This document shows, in pieces, positions 1-13,188 of a stretch of 14,685 nucleotides of DNA. The translations under genes were made by a program, and so were the position numbers. Source of the stretch: Crocosphaera subtropica ATCC 51142 (GTDB lineage Bacteria; Cyanobacteriota; Cyanobacteriia; Cyanobacteriales; Microcystaceae); contig NC_010542.1 in NCBI RefSeq assembly GCF_000017845.1, positions 1 to 14,685 of the forward strand, given 5' to 3'. A model generated the notes under the pieces. That model saw only the letters and a program-made list of their open reading frames with translations, made no database searches and was not told the DNA's origin. How positions within the stretch are numbered: the stretch's first letter is position 1; the number at the start of each line of letters is the position of its first letter.

Positions 1-37
1 TTTTTTGATCAGCACAATTAATTCTATTAGGAATATT

Positions 38-700
38 ATGAATAGAAGCACTGGACAGATTTCAAGACTTGAATTTCAAATAACATTAACAATTGGTTTA
101 ATAGTCTCACTGGGAATATCTATTATTATAGGAGCCTACTTTTCAGTCACTCAAAATAAAACATTAGAAGAAAAAAAAGAAGCAAGAGAAACAATATCTT
201 TTATCGCAGGTATTCTAGGTGCTGGACTGGGAATTGTAAGTGCTTTTTATGCTGTTGATTCTATATCAAGAAATAGTCAAACCAGTAAGATTAATCGAGC
301 TATTAATATTATCTCAGAGTGGAATAATATTGATTTTCAAGATTATAAAGACGTATTAGGAGAATTAAGAAGTAAAACTCAACAACTCAAAAAAAATAAT
401 GGAGAAAATGCAAGTGAAGCAGAAAAAGGATATATAATAAATGAAATTATAGAAAGTGATTTTGGATATGTAGGAAAAATACTTGGATACCTTAATTTTC
501 TAGAATATGTTTCATTATTGGTAGAGACAAATTGTGTAGATGAAGACATGATATATGAATATTTTGTTGTTATTTTTATCAAGGCAGATGATTTATTAGG
601 ATTATGGATAAAACAAAGACAAAAAGATTCAAACAATTACAAAATATATGATCAATTTATTAAAGTTACTAATAAATGGAGATTAAGATATGAGAAATAA
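38..700 (+). CDS. hypothetical membrane protein with two N-terminal TM helices and a ~140-aa soluble C-terminal domain
   Basis: The track ORF is 5..700 (TTG at 5), and the frame stays open to the window edge. I prefer the ATG at 38 because AGGA at 29-32 precedes it by 5 nt. Hydrophobic segments are ITLTIGLIVSLGISIIIGAYFSV and ISFIAGILGAGLGIVSAFYAV. The gene is much more AT-rich than the backbone genes. I recognise no family with confidence. Confidence 0.6.
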   Translation: MNRSTGQISRLEFQITLTIGLIVSLGISIIIGAYFSVTQNKTLEEKKEARETISFIAGILGAGLGIVSAFYAVDSISRNSQTSKINRAINIISEWNNIDFQDYKDVLGELRSKTQQLKKNNGENASEAEKGYIINEIIESDFGYVGKILGYLNFLEYVSLLVETNCVDEDMIYEYFVVIFIKADDLLGLWIKQRQKDSNNYKIYDQFIKVTNKWRLRYEK

Positions 701-1079: not shown

Positions 1080-3563
1080 CTAAAAAATATCCCTGGCCCG
1101 AGTCCAACGCATAAGATCAAAAGGAAATTTACCGTCAGGGGTCAATACTTTCACCATTGGTTCTCGATGTTGGTACAGTGGCAAGTGGTGAACCGGTACA
1201 TTCTCCACTAACCCACGGGCGATCTGCTTCTCATACCATTGGAGAAATTCGTCGGTTATTCCTGCCGTCGGGTTAGATAGGTATGGGGATGAGGATGGCT
1301 TAGAGGATGTCTGTGGGGTATTGGTGGCGGTGGTGGGCTTCCATTTCTGCTTGATGGCTTTGACTAGGAAGCCAGCAGGGTTTTTAACTTGTCCCTGGCG
1401 TTTATGCTCTCGTAAGGCTTCTAGGGCGTTTAAGACCACTTCGGAGGTGTTAGATTTAATTAATCGCTCAATGGTGCGGTTAACTTCGATGCCATAATCG
1501 TCACACTTCTCAAGCAGCTTCTTCTTACTCAGTTTTCTGGGTTGGCCATTAGTCGATGATAAAAATTGATTATTATCATGGGATTGGAGATTGCAGATTG
1601 GAGATTTTAGATTGACTCCTGGTTGTTTGACAGAGGTTGGAGATTCATGATTATTGATTTTCCGTTGGTTAGTAGATAATGGTTGATTGTTTTGATCAAT
1701 CTGCAATCTGCCCTCTTCAATCTCCAATGTTTGCTCAATGGTTGGTGATTGATTGGTGGTGTCGTCAACCTGGGGAGCTTCAGGGGTTGATGGAGTCGGT
1801 TCTGTTGTGTCTTCTACTGCGTCAATTTTGCCATTTGACGGGGGTTGATTGGGTTTGGTAATGGATTCATCATTCGATGGGGTTAACTGGGCTATTTCTG
1901 CCATTAACTCGGCTTCTAGGCGTTTGAGGCCATAGGGAATGAATAAGCCAAGATTGAGAAAGGCTTGCTTAGCAGAATGAACCGAAGCGAGACGGTTGGC
2001 TAGGTGATCTGGGAGATCATCGGGTAATTCGGAAAGTTGAACCGGTGCGTCGGAGAGAGGGGGGTCAGTAGGTGGCTTAGATTTTTGGAAAGTTGTGGGA
2101 TTATTTTTTGATTTTTTTTGTGGGTCAAATTCAAGCCCTTCAAAAACTTCATATATAGGGGTATATGATGCACTTTCGCTCTGGCTATGGGTTTCAGCTT
2201 GTTTGGTTGGGGGGGCAGTTTGGTCAGTTTCGGGGCTTTTTTGGGGTTCGGTAATAGATGCTGTTTCCCTCTGGGAATGGGATTGCATCTTTTCTTGATT
2301 GCTTCTGTATTTGGGATGCCACAGTGCTAGATACTTTTTCTGGGATAAGGTTCTGTTTGAAAACCCTGTGCCATATTTTTCTTTGGCTATTTTTATGATG
2401 GCTTGTCTTCTTTCTACTACTTTTTGGGGTAGCTCTCCATTGGCTTCTAGGTGGGCTACTGTTTCAGTAATTCTCTTTTCTATGTCGAGGGTTCTAGGAG
2501 TTTTGTCCATCGACTTATTGTAGGTTTGGTTATAGTTACTGCTTCGGTTGGGATAGTTACAGTAGGGTAGATAATATTCGTTTCTTTCTGTGTAATAACA
2601 GATTTCTTCGATTCGTTGCTCTATTTCGTGTTGGTGGCGACACCATTGATTATATCCTGGGGCGTTGATTACTTCTTCGATGACTGCGGCCCTTAGTTTG
2701 GCTCCTGTTAGTTCTTTGAAGACGATATGATAGGCGACGAATTTTGTTAGTAGGTAGTTGGTTTGGTGGTGTCCTGTCCATCCTAGTTCTAGTAGTTTTT
2801 CTAGGGCTTGTTTCCAGGCGATCGCTGTTGGACTATAGTAAGCTTTTTGCCAGCTTCTTTGGGCTTTGAATTCTTGGTAGGCTACGTCTAAGCGGCTACT
2901 AAAGGTTTCTATGTCTTGTCCTTCGGCGGCCCAGTCCATTTGGTCTAGGAAGTCTTCTACTGAGTCGCTGATGATGTTTAGGTCTTGGTCTAGGAGGTAT
3001 GACCCGCTATTGGGTTGTAATGGGAGGCGTACTCCATTATAACAGCTTTTTTTTCCGTTTTTGGCGTATCTCTTGGGGTTGGGAAAGATTTCTAGTTGCC
3101 CTGTTTTTATTTCTAGTTGGGCTGCTTCTAGGGTGGCTTTGACTAAACAGGCTGTTTTGAAGGTGTGTAGGGGTTCGGGTAGGGCAAATATTAGGTGTAT
3201 GCCTTGACTATCACTTGATTGAATGAGAACGTGACGGCATAGCCCGATGCTTTCTAGGGCTTCTGTTATGGTTTTTATGGCATCAGGGTCGTTGAAAGGG
3301 TGATAGGGGCTGTTTCTATCGATGTCGATGGTTATGTGTCGGGTGGTTGACCCGAACCGTAATCCGATGGTTATCTGAGGATCTTGGTGTTTATCCCAGA
3401 TTTCTCTCGGACTTAGGGGATAAATGTTGATTGTTGTCCATTTATCGTCGATTTCTAAGATAAAGTCCCATCCGTGATGGTAATATTGGGTGAGTCGCTG
3501 TCCGGTGACAGTGCTAGGGGTTAAGTGTTGGTAGTTTTGTTGTTTCCCTGTTTTTTTCTTCAT
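1080..3563 (-). CDS. putative plasmid replication initiator: primase-polymerase (AEP)-like N-terminal domain, long low-complexity linker, conserved C-terminal domain
   Basis: An 827-aa uninterrupted ORF. The N-terminus has an acidic HITIDIDR motif (DxD type) followed by SSDSQGIHLIFAL (sGxH type), the pattern of archaeo-eukaryotic primase / prim-pol-like plasmid Rep proteins. Residues ~430-700 are P/S/T/Q-rich low complexity. The C-terminal block reads VLNALEALREHKRQGQVKNPAGFLVKAIKQKWKP. A HIP1 octamer lies at 2818-2825. The CDS call is strong; the functional call rests on motifs only. Confidence 0.7.
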   Translation of the reverse strand: MKKKTGKQQNYQHLTPSTVTGQRLTQYYHHGWDFILEIDDKWTTINIYPLSPREIWDKHQDPQITIGLRFGSTTRHITIDIDRNSPYHPFNDPDAIKTITEALESIGLCRHVLIQSSDSQGIHLIFALPEPLHTFKTACLVKATLEAAQLEIKTGQLEIFPNPKRYAKNGKKSCYNGVRLPLQPNSGSYLLDQDLNIISDSVEDFLDQMDWAAEGQDIETFSSRLDVAYQEFKAQRSWQKAYYSPTAIAWKQALEKLLELGWTGHHQTNYLLTKFVAYHIVFKELTGAKLRAAVIEEVINAPGYNQWCRHQHEIEQRIEEICYYTERNEYYLPYCNYPNRSSNYNQTYNKSMDKTPRTLDIEKRITETVAHLEANGELPQKVVERRQAIIKIAKEKYGTGFSNRTLSQKKYLALWHPKYRSNQEKMQSHSQRETASITEPQKSPETDQTAPPTKQAETHSQSESASYTPIYEVFEGLEFDPQKKSKNNPTTFQKSKPPTDPPLSDAPVQLSELPDDLPDHLANRLASVHSAKQAFLNLGLFIPYGLKRLEAELMAEIAQLTPSNDESITKPNQPPSNGKIDAVEDTTEPTPSTPEAPQVDDTTNQSPTIEQTLEIEEGRLQIDQNNQPLSTNQRKINNHESPTSVKQPGVNLKSPICNLQSHDNNQFLSSTNGQPRKLSKKKLLEKCDDYGIEVNRTIERLIKSNTSEVVLNALEALREHKRQGQVKNPAGFLVKAIKQKWKPTTATNTPQTSSKPSSSPYLSNPTAGITDEFLQWYEKQIARGLVENVPVHHLPLYQHREPMVKVLTPDGKFPFDLMRWTRARDIF

Positions 3564-4301: not shown

Positions 4302-4625
4302 ATGTTTCCAAAAACAGGTGAATTAGTAGAACAACTAAAATTTGTTATTCCAGTAGGAACTCAGTTTCTTGTTAACGATTTAACTGCTAATAATGTTGAT
4401 ATATCTTTGTGTACATCAACTTGTGAGGAAGTTCCTTTCTGGATGACAAACGACGGCAAAATAGATCCTGCTATTAGTGGTTTTGGATTTAAAGATGATC
4501 CAGCAGGTGGAACTTATGATGCGTCATCAATTACTACGCAAAAAGCCCCTGAACCTGGTACTATTCTCGGACTTCTTGCTATCAGTGGTTTAGGTTTAGG
4601 ATTAAAACGCAAAAAGCAATCATAA
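4302..4625 (+). CDS. PEP-CTERM domain protein with no recognisable N-terminal signal peptide
   Basis: The C-terminus KAPEPGTILGLLAISGLGLGLKRKKQS has PEP, a hydrophobic span and a basic cluster, which is the PEP-CTERM/exosortase sorting signal. GGAG at 4289-4292 lies upstream of the ATG. An in-frame TGA at 4293-4295 prevents any N-terminal extension. Confidence 0.7.
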   Translation: MFPKTGELVEQLKFVIPVGTQFLVNDLTANNVDISLCTSTCEEVPFWMTNDGKIDPAISGFGFKDDPAGGTYDASSITTQKAPEPGTILGLLAISGLGLGLKRKKQS

Positions 4626-6644: not shown

Positions 6645-6734
6645 CTTTTTATTGAGTGTGTGCTGTGTTTAAGAGTAGAACAATTCCTTTCCCATCCGCC
6701 CAGAGTAGGGGGTTCAGGGGGTGGAACCCCTTGA

Positions 6735-6770
6735 CGCACTGCAAACGATAGTTTGCGTAAGTGCGCTTTC
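6735..6770 (+). other. oriT: oriT: inverted repeat followed by a MOBQ nic core GTAAGTGCGC
   Basis: cgcact gcaaac gata gtttgc GTAAGTGCGC tttc. The arms gcaaac (6741-6746) and gtttgc (6751-6756) are followed directly by gtaagtgcgc (6757-6766). This matches the RSF1010 oriT core GGTAAGTGCGCCCT, which also follows a hairpin (recalled from memory). Extra inverted repeats lie at 6709-6715/6724-6730 and cctttc g gaaagg at 6770-6782. The site sits between divergent mobA and mobC. Confidence 0.75.
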
Positions 6771-6840
6771 CTTTCGGAAAGGGGATCTAGCTACTTGATT
6801 ATAGTATAGAATATGGGTGTGAAAGCTGGTGTCTGATGAG

Positions 6841-6869
6841 TTACCATAATGGTCTAAGTTTACCATAAT
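6841..6869 (+). promoter_or_regulatory. two direct TTACCATAAT repeats upstream of mobC, a promoter/operator candidate
   Basis: ttaccataat occurs at 6841-6850 and 6860-6869, and each copy contains a CATAAT -10-like hexamer. GAGGGG at 6872-6877 is the likely SD for the ATG at 6884. On the minus strand a TATAAT (plus-strand 6798-6803) could serve mobA. Confidence 0.3.
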
Positions 6870-6883
6870 ATGAGGGGTATATA

Positions 6884-7495
6884 ATGACTAAAAAGTTAGA
6901 AAAATTACTAGAGCAACGGGAGAAGATTAACGCACGGATACAGAAGGCGAGAGCGAGGGAGACAGCACAGAAAAGGAAGGAAGATACGAGACGAAAGATT
7001 TTACTAGGGGCGTTGGTGATAGAGATGATGGATAAGGGGGAATTAGATGATGGGGTTATTATGAAAAGATTAGAGGGATTTTTGACGAGAGATATTGATA
7101 GAAAGTTGTTTGATTTTCCTGTACAGGGAGATAGTGATTCAACGGAAACGACATCAGATAAAAAGCCTACATCTTCTAAGAAAACTACTGAGTCAAAGGG
7201 GGCTAAGAAGGGGTCAAGTGCGTCTCAAAGTAGTGAGGGAAAAATAGCTGATTTAATTAGAACAGAAGTAGAGGGATCATCGGTTGAGATTATTTTAGAA
7301 GAGTACCCTTCAGATCAGAAAATGGCTATTCTCAGAACAGTGAGAGAAGTTACTAACTTAGGACTTAAAGAGGCCAAAGATTTAATTGAGTCAACACCTT
7401 GTGTAATTCACAAAACGACTCAATCATCAGCTGATGGTGCTAAGAAAAAATTAGAGAAGTTTGGGGCTAAGGTGAGTTTAAAAGTTGATAGTTAA
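6884..7495 (+). CDS. mobC: MobC-type relaxosome accessory protein fused to a ribosomal bL12 (L7/L12) C-terminal-like domain
   Basis: Residues 1-80 ([41 protein letters not shown]...[14 protein letters not shown]) resemble RSF1010 MobC. Residues 81-130 are an S/T/K-rich linker. Residues ~131-200 ([67 protein letters not shown]) align with the E. coli RplL C-terminal domain. A good SD is present. Confidence 0.85.
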   Translation: [203 protein letters not shown]

Positions 7496-7499
7496 AAGT

Positions 7500-7634
7500 T
7501 TAGGGGTCAAAGGCTTTTGAGAAAGCTTCTGTGATGGGTTCAATTTGAAGGTCTTTGAGACGGGTATAAACGGCAGAACGGGCGATGCCGTAACGGTTGG
7601 GGAGTTGGGATAAGGGAATGCGGTCAATTTCCAT
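7500..7634 (-). CDS. 44-aa helix-turn-helix mini-protein, an excisionase/regulator-like candidate or gene remnant
   Basis: My own translation, below the track threshold: MEIDRIPLSQLPNRYGIARSAVYTRLKDLQIEPITEAFSKAFDP. The segment GIARSAVYTRLK is a typical HTH recognition-helix pattern. The start lies 13 nt from repeat copy A. There is no clear SD. Confidence 0.3.
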   Translation of the reverse strand: MEIDRIPLSQLPNRYGIARSAVYTRLKDLQIEPITEAFSKAFDP

Positions 7635-7984: not shown

Positions 7985-8449
7985 ATGATGAATTTAAAGG
8001 AACAGAGTAAAGAAAAATTTTTAACGACTGAAGAGATTCAAGTTTTGTTCAACGATGGATTCACCAGTGAACAAGAGCGGGTTTTCTTTGGGGTTATGTT
8101 GTTTACGGGCTGTCATTTACATGAAGCTTGTGCCTTAGAAACGGCTGATGTTTATGATGAATCTGGTTTGGTTAGGGATGGGATCATTATTAGGAATAAG
8201 AATACCTTAAAAACAAGAATCATCCCCGTGTGTGAACCATTAAGGAAACTGTTGAGCAAATACAGTTTAAATCGTCAGGAACGTTACTTATTTCCTGAAG
8301 AGTCAGGGGGACATATTCAGTCTAAAACTGCGTCTAGAATCTTGAAAAAAGCCTGTGAAAAAGTGGGTCTTCTTAACGTTGATACCAATATTTTTAGAAA
8401 AACAATGGTTGCTCAAATGATGAATAGGAAAACCCCTTTTATATCATAG
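7985..8449 (+). pseudogene. degenerate, C-terminally truncated paralogue of the small tyrosine recombinase
   Basis: It aligns with the 11734..12339 product: LTTEEIQVLFNDGF vs LTSDQISLLFTEGF, and YLFPEESGGHIQSKTASRILKKACEKVG vs NLFPGRHGRGHIHKASADRILRGICKKLE. The catalytic Arg context AARINEA is replaced by GCHLHEA, and HSFRRT is replaced by NIFRKT. The ORF stops before the GH...Y nucleophile segment. Confidence 0.6.
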
Positions 8450-9939: not shown

Positions 9940-9985
9940 CTAGACAGTCTAGGACAAACAAGGTTAACTTGCGGGGAATTGTTCA
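9940..9985 (+). repeat. module-boundary repeat, copy C
   Basis: ctagacagtctaggacaaacaaggttaacttgcggggaattgttca. It contains the near-perfect palindrome cctagac a gtctagg (9939-9953). It overlaps the stop codon of the 9983..10579 ORF and lies ~50 nt upstream (minus sense) of the 9440..9889 start. Confidence 0.8.
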
Positions 9986-10579
9986 CTCATCATCATCAGG
10001 GGCATCTGATGAGGGAAAATAACGACGTTGAGAAGGGGGTTTGTGCCACCCTGTGAGTTCTAATAGGTAATCATCGGGGTTAAGATTAAGTCGAGAAGCC
10101 CATTGATTTATTTGGCTTGAAGTTAGGTTAATCTTTTTACAAAGGTCGGTTTTTGTTAGACCTTCACTTATTTCTGTATCGGAACAAGTAAACTCTATGT
10201 TTCCTCTAGGGATGTCTTCAAATTTCTCCTTTAGAGAAGATAAACCTGTATTTATAAGAGCTTGTCTAAGTTGGTCAATTTCTGTTCTTAGGGACTCTAT
10301 CTCATCAGTAAACTCAGATTCTTGTTCAGCTACAGTAGCAGATAAGTCGTCTATTTCCGTGGTTTTAACTTTCAAGTTTTTGACTTCTTCTTCGAGTGTC
10401 TCTGGTAGCACTTCGGTAGGAATATTCCCCTCAAGGTAATGCTCAAGGATAATAACTAAGGCTTGAGATACCTTTTTTATTTTGTGAGTCTTCATCCAGG
10501 TTTCTAGACTGCTGTATAGGCTTAAATCTAGATAGGCTGTGACTTTAGCGTGATTCTTTAACCATTCGTTGGTAGCCAT
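9983..10579 (-). CDS. ribbon-helix-helix N-terminus, acidic coiled coil and C-terminal HTH-like domain; putative regulator or centromere-binding protein
   Basis: KVTAYLDLSLYSSLETWMKTHKIKKVSQALVIILEHYL fits a beta-strand/helix/helix RHH (CopG/Arc/ParG-like) pattern. The middle is EEEVKNLKVKTTEIDDLSATVAEQESEFTDEIESLRTEIDQLRQAL. The C-terminus GLTKTDLCKKINLTSSQINQWASRL is HTH-like. The gene sits directly downstream of the AT-rich repeat field. Confidence 0.65.
   Translation of the reverse strand: MATNEWLKNHAKVTAYLDLSLYSSLETWMKTHKIKKVSQALVIILEHYLEGNIPTEVLPETLEEEVKNLKVKTTEIDDLSATVAEQESEFTDEIESLRTEIDQLRQALINTGLSSLKEKFEDIPRGNIEFTCSDTEISEGLTKTDLCKKINLTSSQINQWASRLNLNPDDYLLELTGWHKPPSQRRYFPSSDAPDDDE
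10052..10090 (+). repeat. partner of the 8628-8665 duplication, within the intact gene
   Basis: See 8628-8665. Here the segment is part of the intact 9983..10579 reading frame. Confidence 0.8.
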
Positions 10580-12339: not shown

Positions 12340-12523
12340 AGATAAGTTTAATAACGTAGAAGCATTGAAAGCCCATCACATGGTTGTTACAGCAACAGGA
12401 GTTTAGATTTTCTTATCATTTCACTTTAAGATTCCTGAGTATTAACACTCAAACGATAAGTTTTATTTATATAGTCAAGGAACGGGTTAAACGTTTTGAA
12501 AATGGAACAGGAGGAAAGGATTG

Positions 12524-12790
12524 ATGGAAAGTCTCAAGATACGCTCCCGTGTGGATGCTGATGGAGTTGTGCGCTTACAAGTTCCTGTGGAGTTAGCCAA
12601 CTCAGAAATTGACTTAGTGGTGGTTTATCAAACAGTGGAAAAGAGCAGAGAATCAAAGGAGTCTAAAACCGCTACTGAATTAGGCTATCCCGAAGATTTT
12701 TTTGATTCGACTTTTGGTTGTTGGGAAGGGGAACCTTTAACCAGAGGTGAACAAGGGGAATGTGACCAAAGACGTTGGGATCTACTGTGA
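12524..12790 (+). CDS. vapB: VapB-type antitoxin
   Basis: A small ORF directly upstream of the PIN toxin and overlapping it. AGGAGG at 12509-12514 precedes the ATG at 12524 by 9 nt (the track uses TTG at 12521). It has a beta-rich N-terminus (IRSRVDADGVVRLQVPVEL) and an acidic tail GYPEDFFDSTFGCWEGEPLTRGEQGE, typical of cyanobacterial PIN-partner antitoxins. Confidence 0.8.
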   Translation: MESLKIRSRVDADGVVRLQVPVELANSEIDLVVVYQTVEKSRESKESKTATELGYPEDFFDSTFGCWEGEPLTRGEQGECDQRRWDLL

Positions 12791-13188
12791 TTTATCTACT
12801 CGATACTAATACTTGTATTCAATATTTGACCGGTAGAAGTCCTGCGGTAATGGCTCGCTTCAAGAGGGTGAGACGGGTTGAGATCGCTTTGTGTGATGTG
12901 GTCAAGGCCGAACTTTACTATGGGGCTAACAAGAGTTCACGTCGTGAGGCCAATCTAGCTTTATACGAACGTTTTTTTAGTCAATATGTGAGTTTACCTT
13001 TTGATGGCACGGCGGCCATTATTTATGGTCGCCTCAGAGCAACCCTTGAAGCTGTGGGGCAACCCATTGGCCCCTATGACCTAATGATTGCTGCGATCTC
13101 ATTAGCCAATAATTTAATTTTAGTGACTCATAATGTTGATGAGTTTAGCCGTGTCGAAGGGTTAACGATTGAAGATTGGGAAGTGTGA
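12787..13188 (+). CDS. vapC: PIN-domain ribonuclease toxin VapC
   Basis: IYLLDTNTCIQYL (first acidic residue), VVKAELYYGA, GPYDLMIAAISL and LVTHNVDEF together form the PIN acidic quartet pattern. I prefer the GTG at 12787, which overlaps the antitoxin stop as GTGA (translational coupling). The track starts at TTG 12775. Confidence 0.9.
   Translation: MIYLLDTNTCIQYLTGRSPAVMARFKRVRRVEIALCDVVKAELYYGANKSSRREANLALYERFFSQYVSLPFDGTAAIIYGRLRATLEAVGQPIGPYDLMIAAISLANNLILVTHNVDEFSRVEGLTIEDWEV

Follow-up and report, generated by a model that had tools for sequence, protein, structure and literature searches.

Why would a plasmid mobilisation protein carry the head of the ribosomal stalk? The question is raised by a gene of Crocosphaera subtropica (formerly Cyanothece) ATCC 51142 that lies on a plasmid of 14,685 bp, the entire sequence of which is the window analysed here. 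The gene, mobC-bL12, encodes a protein that is, almost beyond doubt, a MobC accessory protein followed by a disordered tether and a complete C-terminal domain (CTD) of the ribosomal protein bL12 (L7/L12). A fusion of this kind had been the original prediction for the locus, together with several speculations on what a bL12 domain might do in conjugation. The identity and the architecture of the protein are the firmest part of what follows, the history of its CTD is reconstructed with some confidence, and its function is proposed tentatively.

A MobC-type protein that ends in a bL12 domain

The first ~80 residues had been likened to MobC of RSF1010, and the likeness is borne out. Residues 2-79 are identical at 39 of 78 positions (50%; BLASTP, E=7e-25) to MobC of pRKZ3, the RSF1010-type plasmid that served as our IncQ1 reference and that has IncQ-type MobB genes as well as a small divergent mobilisation gene. 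The resemblance to RSF1010/R1162 (IncQ) MobC includes one conserved 12-residue motif, the motif FLxRDxDRxLF present in both proteins, and the setting of the gene, which diverges from a MobA/MobQ relaxase across an origin of transfer (oriT) where a hairpin is followed by a GTAAGTGCGC core. By tblastn, the fusion protein also matches the "mobilization protein" of hundreds of MOBQ plasmids. The sole Pfam match in its N-terminal part is PF06412 (TraD), limited to residues 29-46 around the DTRRKILLG motif (22.3 bits at a cutoff of 22.3; model positions 2-19 of 62). The similarity to IncQ MobC is far stronger than this threshold match to the TraD model of Agrobacterium Ti plasmids. AlphaFold2, run on an alignment of 19 family members, models the MobC domain as all-helical, with helices at residues 2-51 or 3-50, 56-66 and 70-75 and a confidence score (pLDDT) of 80-90, given for the domain as 83; the PDB gives neither a sequence match nor, by Foldseek, a fold match for it.

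Classical MobC is ~86-94 amino acids (aa) long and ends right after an FDLP motif, whereas the fusion protein continues with a disordered linker of ~50 residues and a bL12 CTD of 68 residues. The linker, foreseen as a S/T/K-rich stretch of ~50 aa, spans residues 81-132, and pLDDT falls below 50 across residues 84-128. The CTD, which had been placed at residues ~131-200, is a full-length PF00542 domain (residues 135-200, model positions 2-67 of 67; E=7.5e-20, 71.5 bits against a cutoff of 25.9). Residues 134-201 of the model are arranged as beta-alpha-alpha-beta-alpha-beta, and the superposition on the E. coli bL12 CTD (1ctf) that had been proposed as a check gives a TM score of 0.87 and a root mean square deviation of 1.4 A at 41% sequence identity. 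Chains of bL12 were the only matches of the fusion protein among all PDB sequences (phmmer, best E=5e-12). A ClpS-like reading of the CTD was rejected: ClpS is a known structural relative of the domain, and its matches are structural only, at 8-14% identity, and far behind bL12. The strings of RSF1010 MobC and E. coli RplL that the original prediction had quoted are in essence correct, and one detail needs amending: the alignment to RplL, described as having a single offset of one residue, contains two compensating 1-residue indels, namely an extra residue ahead of K65, which cyanobacterial bL12 has as well, and the loss of G97.

The likeness to ribosomal bL12 is extensive. The protein has a full-length PF00542 domain with the bL12 fold, 58% identical to that of Crocosphaera bL12, and an analogous layout of anchoring N-domain, flexible hinge and factor-binding head. 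It is nonetheless no ribosomal protein, because it lacks the N-terminal domain that anchors bL12 to uL10. A Pfam scan of the fusion protein found no PF16320, the dimerisation and uL10-binding domain; the bL12 equivalog TIGR00855 is matched at model positions 51-125 only and at 63.2 bits, under its cutoff of 84.4; residues invariant in bL12 are relaxed and K100 is lost; and the gene is plasmid-borne beside a relaxase rather than part of an rplJ-rplL operon. At 203 aa, with a linker and a bL12 CTD, the protein represents a variant architecture and not a canonical MobC, which is a single domain of less than ~100 aa. A database entry 100% identical to the open reading frame (ORF) is named "50S ribosomal protein L7/L12-like protein (plasmid)"; the name "ribosomal protein L7/L12", with the Gene Ontology (GO) term translation, is a misannotation.

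The oriT cassette and the history of the fusion

The gene is part of a compact cassette composed of a MobQ relaxase, an RSF1010-type oriT and mobC (Table 1). Relaxase and mobC-bL12 diverge from a 239-bp intergenic region, and a divergent homologous relaxase is found upstream of mobC in most of the loci that we fetched; where it is missing, the locus usually ends near mobC. Models of Ti-type TraA relaxases also match the window relaxase. Folded as single-stranded DNA (ssDNA), positions 6705-6790 form three hairpins (-23.1 kcal/mol, z=-6.35), and none of 200 shuffled sequences folds equally well. The oriT inverted repeat is placed as in RSF1010/IncQ1 and its arms co-vary in relatives (GCAAGC/GCTTGC in locus L003, GCAACC/GGTTGC in L005). 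The GTAAGTGCGC core that follows is invariant in all nine aligned oriTs, which range from IncQ1, Rhizobium and Acinetobacter to cyanobacteria, and occurs on the mobC strand, 5' of mobC, in 50 of the 82 loci retrieved. Set against IncQ1 "cagtttctcgaagagaaaccGGTAAGTGCGCC" (the IncQ1 record around oriT reads cagtttctcgaagagaaaccGGTAAGTGCGCCCTCCC), window positions 6741-6766 have the same repeat-then-core design. In R1162/RSF1010 the nick falls between TAAGTGCG and CCCT, 8 nt 3' of the repeat, with the repeat transferred last. The nick in the window is accordingly predicted between 6765 and 6766; mobC-bL12 would therefore be the first gene to enter the recipient, and its coding strand would be the transferred strand. 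Closer to the gene, two exact TTACCATAAT repeats, 19 bp apart and just upstream of mobC-bL12, could be a promoter or an autoregulatory operator, with promoter-like sites in the region no more numerous than the shuffled expectation. A Shine-Dalgarno sequence, GAGG at 6872-6875, precedes the start codon.

How widespread is the fusion? A search of 5.8 billion proteins, with clustering at 90% identity, returned 53 clusters with both domains, 30 with MobC only and 37 of genuine bL12 (PF16320 plus PF00542); the fusion clusters, unlike the genuine bL12s of the same search, carry PF00542 without PF16320. The traceable carriers are all cyanobacteria of Chroococcales/Pleurocapsales type, and comprise Crocosphaera isolates and metagenome-assembled genomes (MAGs), Gloeothece citriformis PCC 7424 (plasmid pP742406), Chroococcus sp. 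FPU101, Aphanothece hegewaldii and Xenococcaceae MAGs. Only ~six representatives at the 50%-identity level had the full architecture when 1.84 billion representatives were searched exhaustively with a profile. Sampled at one genome per species, 7 of 23 cyanobacterial MobC loci have the CTD and all 58 non-cyanobacterial ones lack it, and among the 515 PLSDB plasmids with a MobC match a single one was covered over the full length of the protein. The MobC domain is well conserved in the family alignment and the bL12 CTD recognisable, with a linker that varies from ~15 to ~70 residues and has no conserved columns. The fusions form three deep clades, between which the MobC domains are only 41-60% identical. 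Two proteins (P0184, 182 aa; P0245, 204 aa) have two tandem MobC domains, in which the unit DTRRKILxGAL...DRxLFxLP occurs twice; the MobC module has been duplicated in some lineages.

This recurrence bears on the most trivial account of the gene, that two separate genes, one for MobC and one bL12-like, have been joined by an assembly or frameshift error. The linker is indeed low in complexity and A-rich, a place where sequencing errors could arise, and the copy in one Xenococcaceae MAG (L014) is frameshifted there. But two cultured strains (ATCC 51142 and Gloeothece PCC 7424) have the same in-frame fusion on finished plasmids, and it recurs on dozens of independent contigs from metagenomes, with linkers that differ from one to the next, and the free-standing bL12-CTD gene that had been sought beside MOBQ relaxases was absent from all 81 loci scanned; the only out-of-frame CTD near these relaxases is the L014 remnant. 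An artefact, refuted by recurrence across independent assemblies, is left with a negligible probability.

From where was the domain acquired? Outside the fusion family, the nearest relative of the window CTD is Crocosphaera bL12, at 58% identity, against at most 49% for proteins with tandem arrays of bL12 CTDs and at most 45% for phage matches; on these figures both the phage origin and the tandem-array proteins were rejected as the source. In a neighbour-joining tree the fusion CTDs are monophyletic, with weak bootstrap support, and nested among bL12s, on long branches and with Crocosphaera sequences as the closest named members. All three fusion clades have derived states in common that are absent from bL12, namely E96K and the loss of E53 and of the invariant K100. 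The CTD clade together with these shared states favours a single capture from a cyanobacterial rplL, which we regard as the probable history; repeated capture or gene conversion may be an alternative.

Once acquired, the domain did not always stay. In a tree of MobC domains, MobC-only and fusion forms are intermingled, and some MobC-only proteins (P0023-25) fall inside the Crocosphaera fusion clade. Three Crocosphaera-type plasmids without the CTD (L006-L008) are 83-90% identical to the window at the DNA level from oriT through mobC, with homology ending within the linker, at ~7176 or ~7216. Gloeothece PCC 7424 has a 171-aa fusion on pP742406 (L001) and an 86-aa MobC on the separate plasmid pP742405 (L002), both in the order mobQ, mobC, GIY-YIG nuclease. 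On both Gloeothece plasmids the nuclease gene is convergent with mobC, and pP742406 also encodes a Shedu (SduA) defence gene. Finally, in L014 (1592-2120) the MobC ORF stops at 88 aa owing to a frameshift in the A-rich linker, and in the CTD that follows out of frame the helix-5 motif, VTRLYFREARKII, is degraded; either the copy is decaying or the MAG contains a sequencing error. The linker-bounded homology, the paired Gloeothece versions and the L014 frameshift together identify the CTD as an optional module, exchanged or lost repeatedly through breaks in the low-complexity linker.

Selection on the stalk head and its possible role

If the domain can be lost so readily, does it do anything? 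Ratios of nonsynonymous to synonymous substitution (dN/dS, Nei-Gojobori) among four Crocosphaera alleles, in six pairwise comparisons, were 0.05-0.11 for the MobC domain, 0.11-0.60 for the linker and 0.25-0.46 for the CTD, the last below 1 in all six. The CTD is under purifying but relaxed selection. It might still be a near-neutral accretion, gained by illegitimate recombination with rplL and kept as an appendage that is harmless or of merely generic use, as for solubility or spacing, and is gradually disappearing. The repeated losses, including the frameshifted and degraded L014 copy, agree with such a history, as do the relaxed constraint, the erosion of bL12-invariant residues and the fact that MobC functions without a CTD across Proteobacteria and on many cyanobacterial plasmids. 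We nevertheless consider it improbable, given that frame and fold are intact in ~53 clusters over three deep clades, that dN/dS is consistently well below 1, and that the residues kept are clustered in functional helices rather than scattered at random. Intact frames in deep clades combined with dN/dS below 1 speak against pure neutrality in particular.

The residues that have been kept are informative about what the head might contact. In bL12, 21 columns reach a conservation of at least 90%, and weighted fusion sequences retain these in 71%, compared with 35% for the other columns. The residues of helices 4 and 5 that we take to be the contacts of bL12 with EF-Tu, EF-G, IF2 and RF3 belong to a surface that the original prediction had recognised in the window protein. 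All of them are there: K65, I66, R73, G79, L80, K81, E82, A83 and K84 are unchanged and K70 is replaced by R. Across the fusions, in unweighted counts, position 65 is K or R in 95%, I66 is kept in 89%, position 70 is K or R in 91%, R73 is kept in 89%, G79 in 66%, position 80 is L or I in 98%, K81 is kept in 91%, position 82 is E or D in 94%, A83 is kept in 64% and K84 in 72%. For K65, K70, R73, K81 and E82, strict identity amounts to 64-85% of fusions (weighted), and to 89-95% (unweighted) when K/R and E/D swaps are allowed. In clade B (Gloeothece, Chroococcus and Aphanothece type) a 16-residue stretch of the helix region is almost exactly bL12-like, and in clade A (Crocosphaera type) A83G is frequent. 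To judge from these alignments, most of the helix-4/5 surface for EF-Tu and EF-G binding appears to have been kept.

Because this surface is mostly kept, the head would still make contacts of the bL12 type, with the docking of translational GTPases as its likeliest activity. In the mechanism that we propose, the MobC domain would bind oriT together with the relaxase and aid the opening of DNA at the nick, as MobC does in R1162/RSF1010, and the tether would display the bL12 head, so that the protein would copy the anchor-hinge-head layout of bL12. The head would dock host translational GTPases at the relaxosome, weakly and driven by avidity, and translating ribosomes would be docked there through those GTPases. 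A possible benefit is that the translation of oriT-proximal mob transcripts would be kept or boosted locally. In several systems mobC enhances transfer and its deletion lowers transfer, and MOBQ4 relaxases act in cis (PMC6856555); this preference of MOBQ relaxases for action in cis makes local mob translation an attractive payoff, although the specific benefit of docking is a guess. The partner of the CTD is probably encoded by the host, since the relaxases of plasmids with and without the CTD are nearly identical (~90%) and a comparison of fusion and CTD-less loci found no conserved neighbour gene that accompanies the CTD. Taken as a whole, the proposal that the fusion protein may be a tethered stalk mimic docking translational GTPases at the relaxosome is, in our estimation, a close call that falls slightly on the doubtful side; that the CTD has retained GTPase binding is, taken by itself, possible but somewhat more doubtful than not. 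An extended version seems to us rather unlikely: tethered bL12 heads on a DNA-bound MobC oligomer would capture GTP-form factors and ribosomes at oriT and tie translation physically to the processing of DNA for conjugation, for instance through the loading of newly made relaxase in cis, and the protein would be one of a wider class of stalk-head adaptors, with phage bL12-domain proteins and tandem bL12-CTD arrays, that tap translational GTPases off the ribosome.

A number of observations weigh against docking at the relaxosome. Constraint on the CTD is relaxed relative to genuine bL12, with bL12-invariant positions falling to 64-85% (weighted); the factor-contact residues stand family-wide at the same 64-85% (weighted), compared with 100% in bL12, and the bL12-invariant K100 is missing throughout the fusions. 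In clade C, G79 and K84 vary or are replaced, and one member, P0073, lacks the LGLKEAK motif altogether. Bootstrap support for a single fusion-CTD clade is weak (22 of 50), as expected from an alignment of only 69 columns. The cassette exists without the CTD in close relatives (L006-L008, pP742405), and the L014 copy is frameshifted and degraded. The isolated bL12 CTD binds its factors weakly, and any effect would therefore need avidity or a high local concentration. The tie between the fusion and cis-acting relaxases, finally, is a conjecture.

Some of these observations would fit a module that has been neofunctionalised, in which the bL12 fold serves as a handle for the type IV coupling protein of a helper element, for the relaxase or for DNA, and in which the likeness to bL12 mostly reflects descent and fold constraint. 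The long branches of the CTD and its dN/dS of 0.25-0.46 show that its evolution is more rapid than that of the MobC domain and far more rapid than that of bL12, and E96K, the losses of K100 and G97 and the helix-5 changes specific to single clades suggest that the interface has shifted. The bL12 CTD is, moreover, a promiscuous building block, found in tandem in fusions to kinases, LRV/HEAT repeats and dockerin/Ig proteins, and accessory proteins of other relaxosomes reach coupling proteins through separate domains. Yet helices 4 and 5, with which bL12 binds its factors, still hold the best-conserved columns of the surface, the presence of the CTD is not tracked by any plasmid-encoded partner, and these small plasmids encode no coupling protein. 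We consider a changed partner unlikely, though worth keeping in mind.

Another possible use of the head would be defence against the host. A free head could soak up host immune effectors or toxins that reach the ribosome by docking on bL12, such as Cami1, a CARF-RelE effector of type III CRISPR systems, and so shield the plasmid on entry or during residence. Ribosomal bL12, present in several copies per ribosome, vastly outnumbers the plasmid protein, however, and this stoichiometry argues against titration; a DNA-bound MobC would also be an odd carrier for a soluble decoy. The patchy presence of the CTD and the fast evolution of its surface are typical of conflict genes, but dN/dS is below 1 and positive selection was not seen at the resolution used. 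The fusion gene is predicted to be the first 3' of the nick, in the leading region by analogy with R1162, but the coding strand is the one predicted to be transferred, and early expression from ssDNA is not expected. The window has no defence-related neighbour; a PADLOC scan of the fusion protein and nine other window proteins (relaxase excluded) gave no meaningful match. What speaks for a decoy is that the bL12 chain in 8phj, a complex of Cami1 with the ribosome, is among the structures matched by our model, that Cami1 is a common type III effector (135 of 1113 loci; PMC11229360) and that its action has been described as an L12-mediated interaction (PMC12179292). We judge this explanation to be quite improbable.

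Precedents, plasmid surroundings and meaning

A bL12 head outside the ribosome is not without company. Proteins of Proteobacteria phages carry embedded bL12 domains that were acquired from hosts, have largely conserved EF-Tu/EF-G contact residues and are under purifying selection, and for one of them peptides were detected by mass spectrometry in ribosome fractions (Mizuno et al., 2019, Nat Commun 10:752, PMC6375957). Like these proteins, the MobC fusion belongs to a mobile element, has the domain within a larger non-ribosomal polypeptide and has homologs that lack it; unlike it, the phage examples involve unrelated proteins of unknown function, none of them conjugative. Ribosome association as in the phage case is unlikely for the fusion because the bL12 N-terminal domain is absent. 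With phage matches at 45% identity or less and cyanobacterial bL12 at 58%, the MobC fusion is an acquisition independent of the phage examples.

A second precedent emerged from the exhaustive profile search, which revealed many long proteins of bacteria in which PF00542 is repeated 3-8 times in tandem (P0121-P0265). They include P0121 (593 aa, 7 copies), P0122 (692 aa, 7-8), P0124 (1056 aa, 7-8), P0125, P0130 and P0148, and some are fused to a Ser/Thr kinase, to LRV/HEAT repeats, to dockerin/Ig/SprB modules or to nothing recognisable. One from Nannocystis pusilla (WP_346660302.1) is annotated merely as "ribosomal protein L7/L12", and we found no literature describing proteins with tandem bL12-CTD arrays. 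The arrays resemble the fusion in their non-ribosomal use of PF00542 and in their automatic naming as "ribosomal protein L7/L12"; they differ in having 3-8 copies, at most 49% identity and no link to conjugation. Three proteins of ~203 aa (P0187, P0241, P0243) are apparently genuine bL12s, with an N-domain and two tandem C-terminal domains. Among cyanobacterial orthocaspases, one that has a Ribosomal_L12 domain has also been tabulated (PMC8283722). Our literature search found nothing that links MobC, relaxosomes or conjugation with L7/L12, and no paper that characterises the fusion as a family. The claim to novelty made for the locus is upheld in that this search found no described role in conjugation; it does not extend to a bL12 CTD outside the ribosome, for which the phage proteins (PMC6375957) and the tandem arrays are precedents. 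The bL12 head is a recurrently co-opted module, and what is new here is the MobC context and the MobC architecture.

Table 1. Features of the 14,685-bp plasmid, with the fusion gene and its mobilisation cassette first
Feature	Position	Strand	Basis or remark
mobC-bL12 fusion ORF	6884..7495	+	203 aa, ATG start
MobC domain, RSF1010/IncQ-type, residues 1-80	6884..7123	+	BLASTP against IncQ1 MobC
Linker, S/T/K/E-rich, disordered, residues 81-132	7124..7279	+	pLDDT, family alignment
bL12 (L7/L12) CTD, residues 133-200	7280..7483	+	PF00542, model against 1ctf
MobQ-family relaxase, 578 aa	4908..6644	-	NF041496 256.3 bits (cutoff 200); PF03389 MobA/MobL E=6.4e-74
Upstream oriT-region hairpin GGGGTTC...GAACCCC	6709..6730	+	first of three predicted ssDNA hairpins; putative role
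oriT inverted repeat GCAAAC-GATA-GTTTGC	6741..6756	+	directly 5' of nick core
oriT nick-region core GTAAGTGCGC	6757..6766	+	alignment, IncQ1 comparison
Promoter-like site TTACCA-17-CATAAT, from two direct repeats TTACCATAAT (6841-6850, 6860-6869)	6841..6869	+	consensus match only
44-aa ORF MEIDRIPLSQLPNRYGIARSAVYTRLKDL..., convergent with mobC-bL12	7500-7634	-	helix-turn-helix-like by eye
827-aa ORF	1080-3563	-	no Pfam match; very weak primase-polymerase match
VapBC-type toxin-antitoxin pair	12521-13188	+	toxin 12775-13188
Tyrosine-recombinase ORF, 154 aa, truncated-looking	7985-8449	+	catalytic part of Phage_integrase model only
Tyrosine-recombinase ORF, 201 aa	11734-12339	-	catalytic part of Phage_integrase model only
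Small PEP-CTERM sorting-signal protein, cargo	4302-4625	+	TIGR02595
DUF4760 protein, cargo	5-700	+	
198-aa coiled-coil-like protein of unknown function	9983-10579	-	

The remainder of the plasmid (Table 1) shows how mobile the cassette is. The 827-aa ORF, presumably the replication protein, shows no homology to the CyRepA1 gene that neighbours the Gloeothece cassette, so that the mobQ-oriT-mobC cassette travels between replicons. The toxin of the VapBC-type pair scores 142.8 bits with the NCBIfam equivalog for the tRNA(fMet)-specific endonuclease VapC, above the cutoff of 140, and gives this small plasmid a second function that targets translation. Short DNA patches of the region of the 44-aa ORF recur elsewhere in plasmids L003 and L007, and the C-terminal two thirds of the 198-aa protein are nearly identical to L007:6407-6805, part of a CTD-less plasmid contig of Crocosphaera sp. 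Alani8.

The findings have an immediate consequence for databases, where dozens of entries named "ribosomal protein L7/L12", with the GO term "translation", are mobilisation proteins and need re-annotation. The compact mobQ-oriT-mobC cassette may also serve cyanobacterial genetics. Should the CTD turn out to be functionless, the family would still be a clean example of the capture and decay of a domain on plasmids. If instead the head still binds EF-Tu, EF-G or IF2, a conjugative relaxosome would for the first time be physically connected with the translation machinery, in a natural system that is genetically tractable because sister plasmids with and without the domain exist, and this would help to explain why the bL12 domain has been stolen repeatedly by phages and plasmids.

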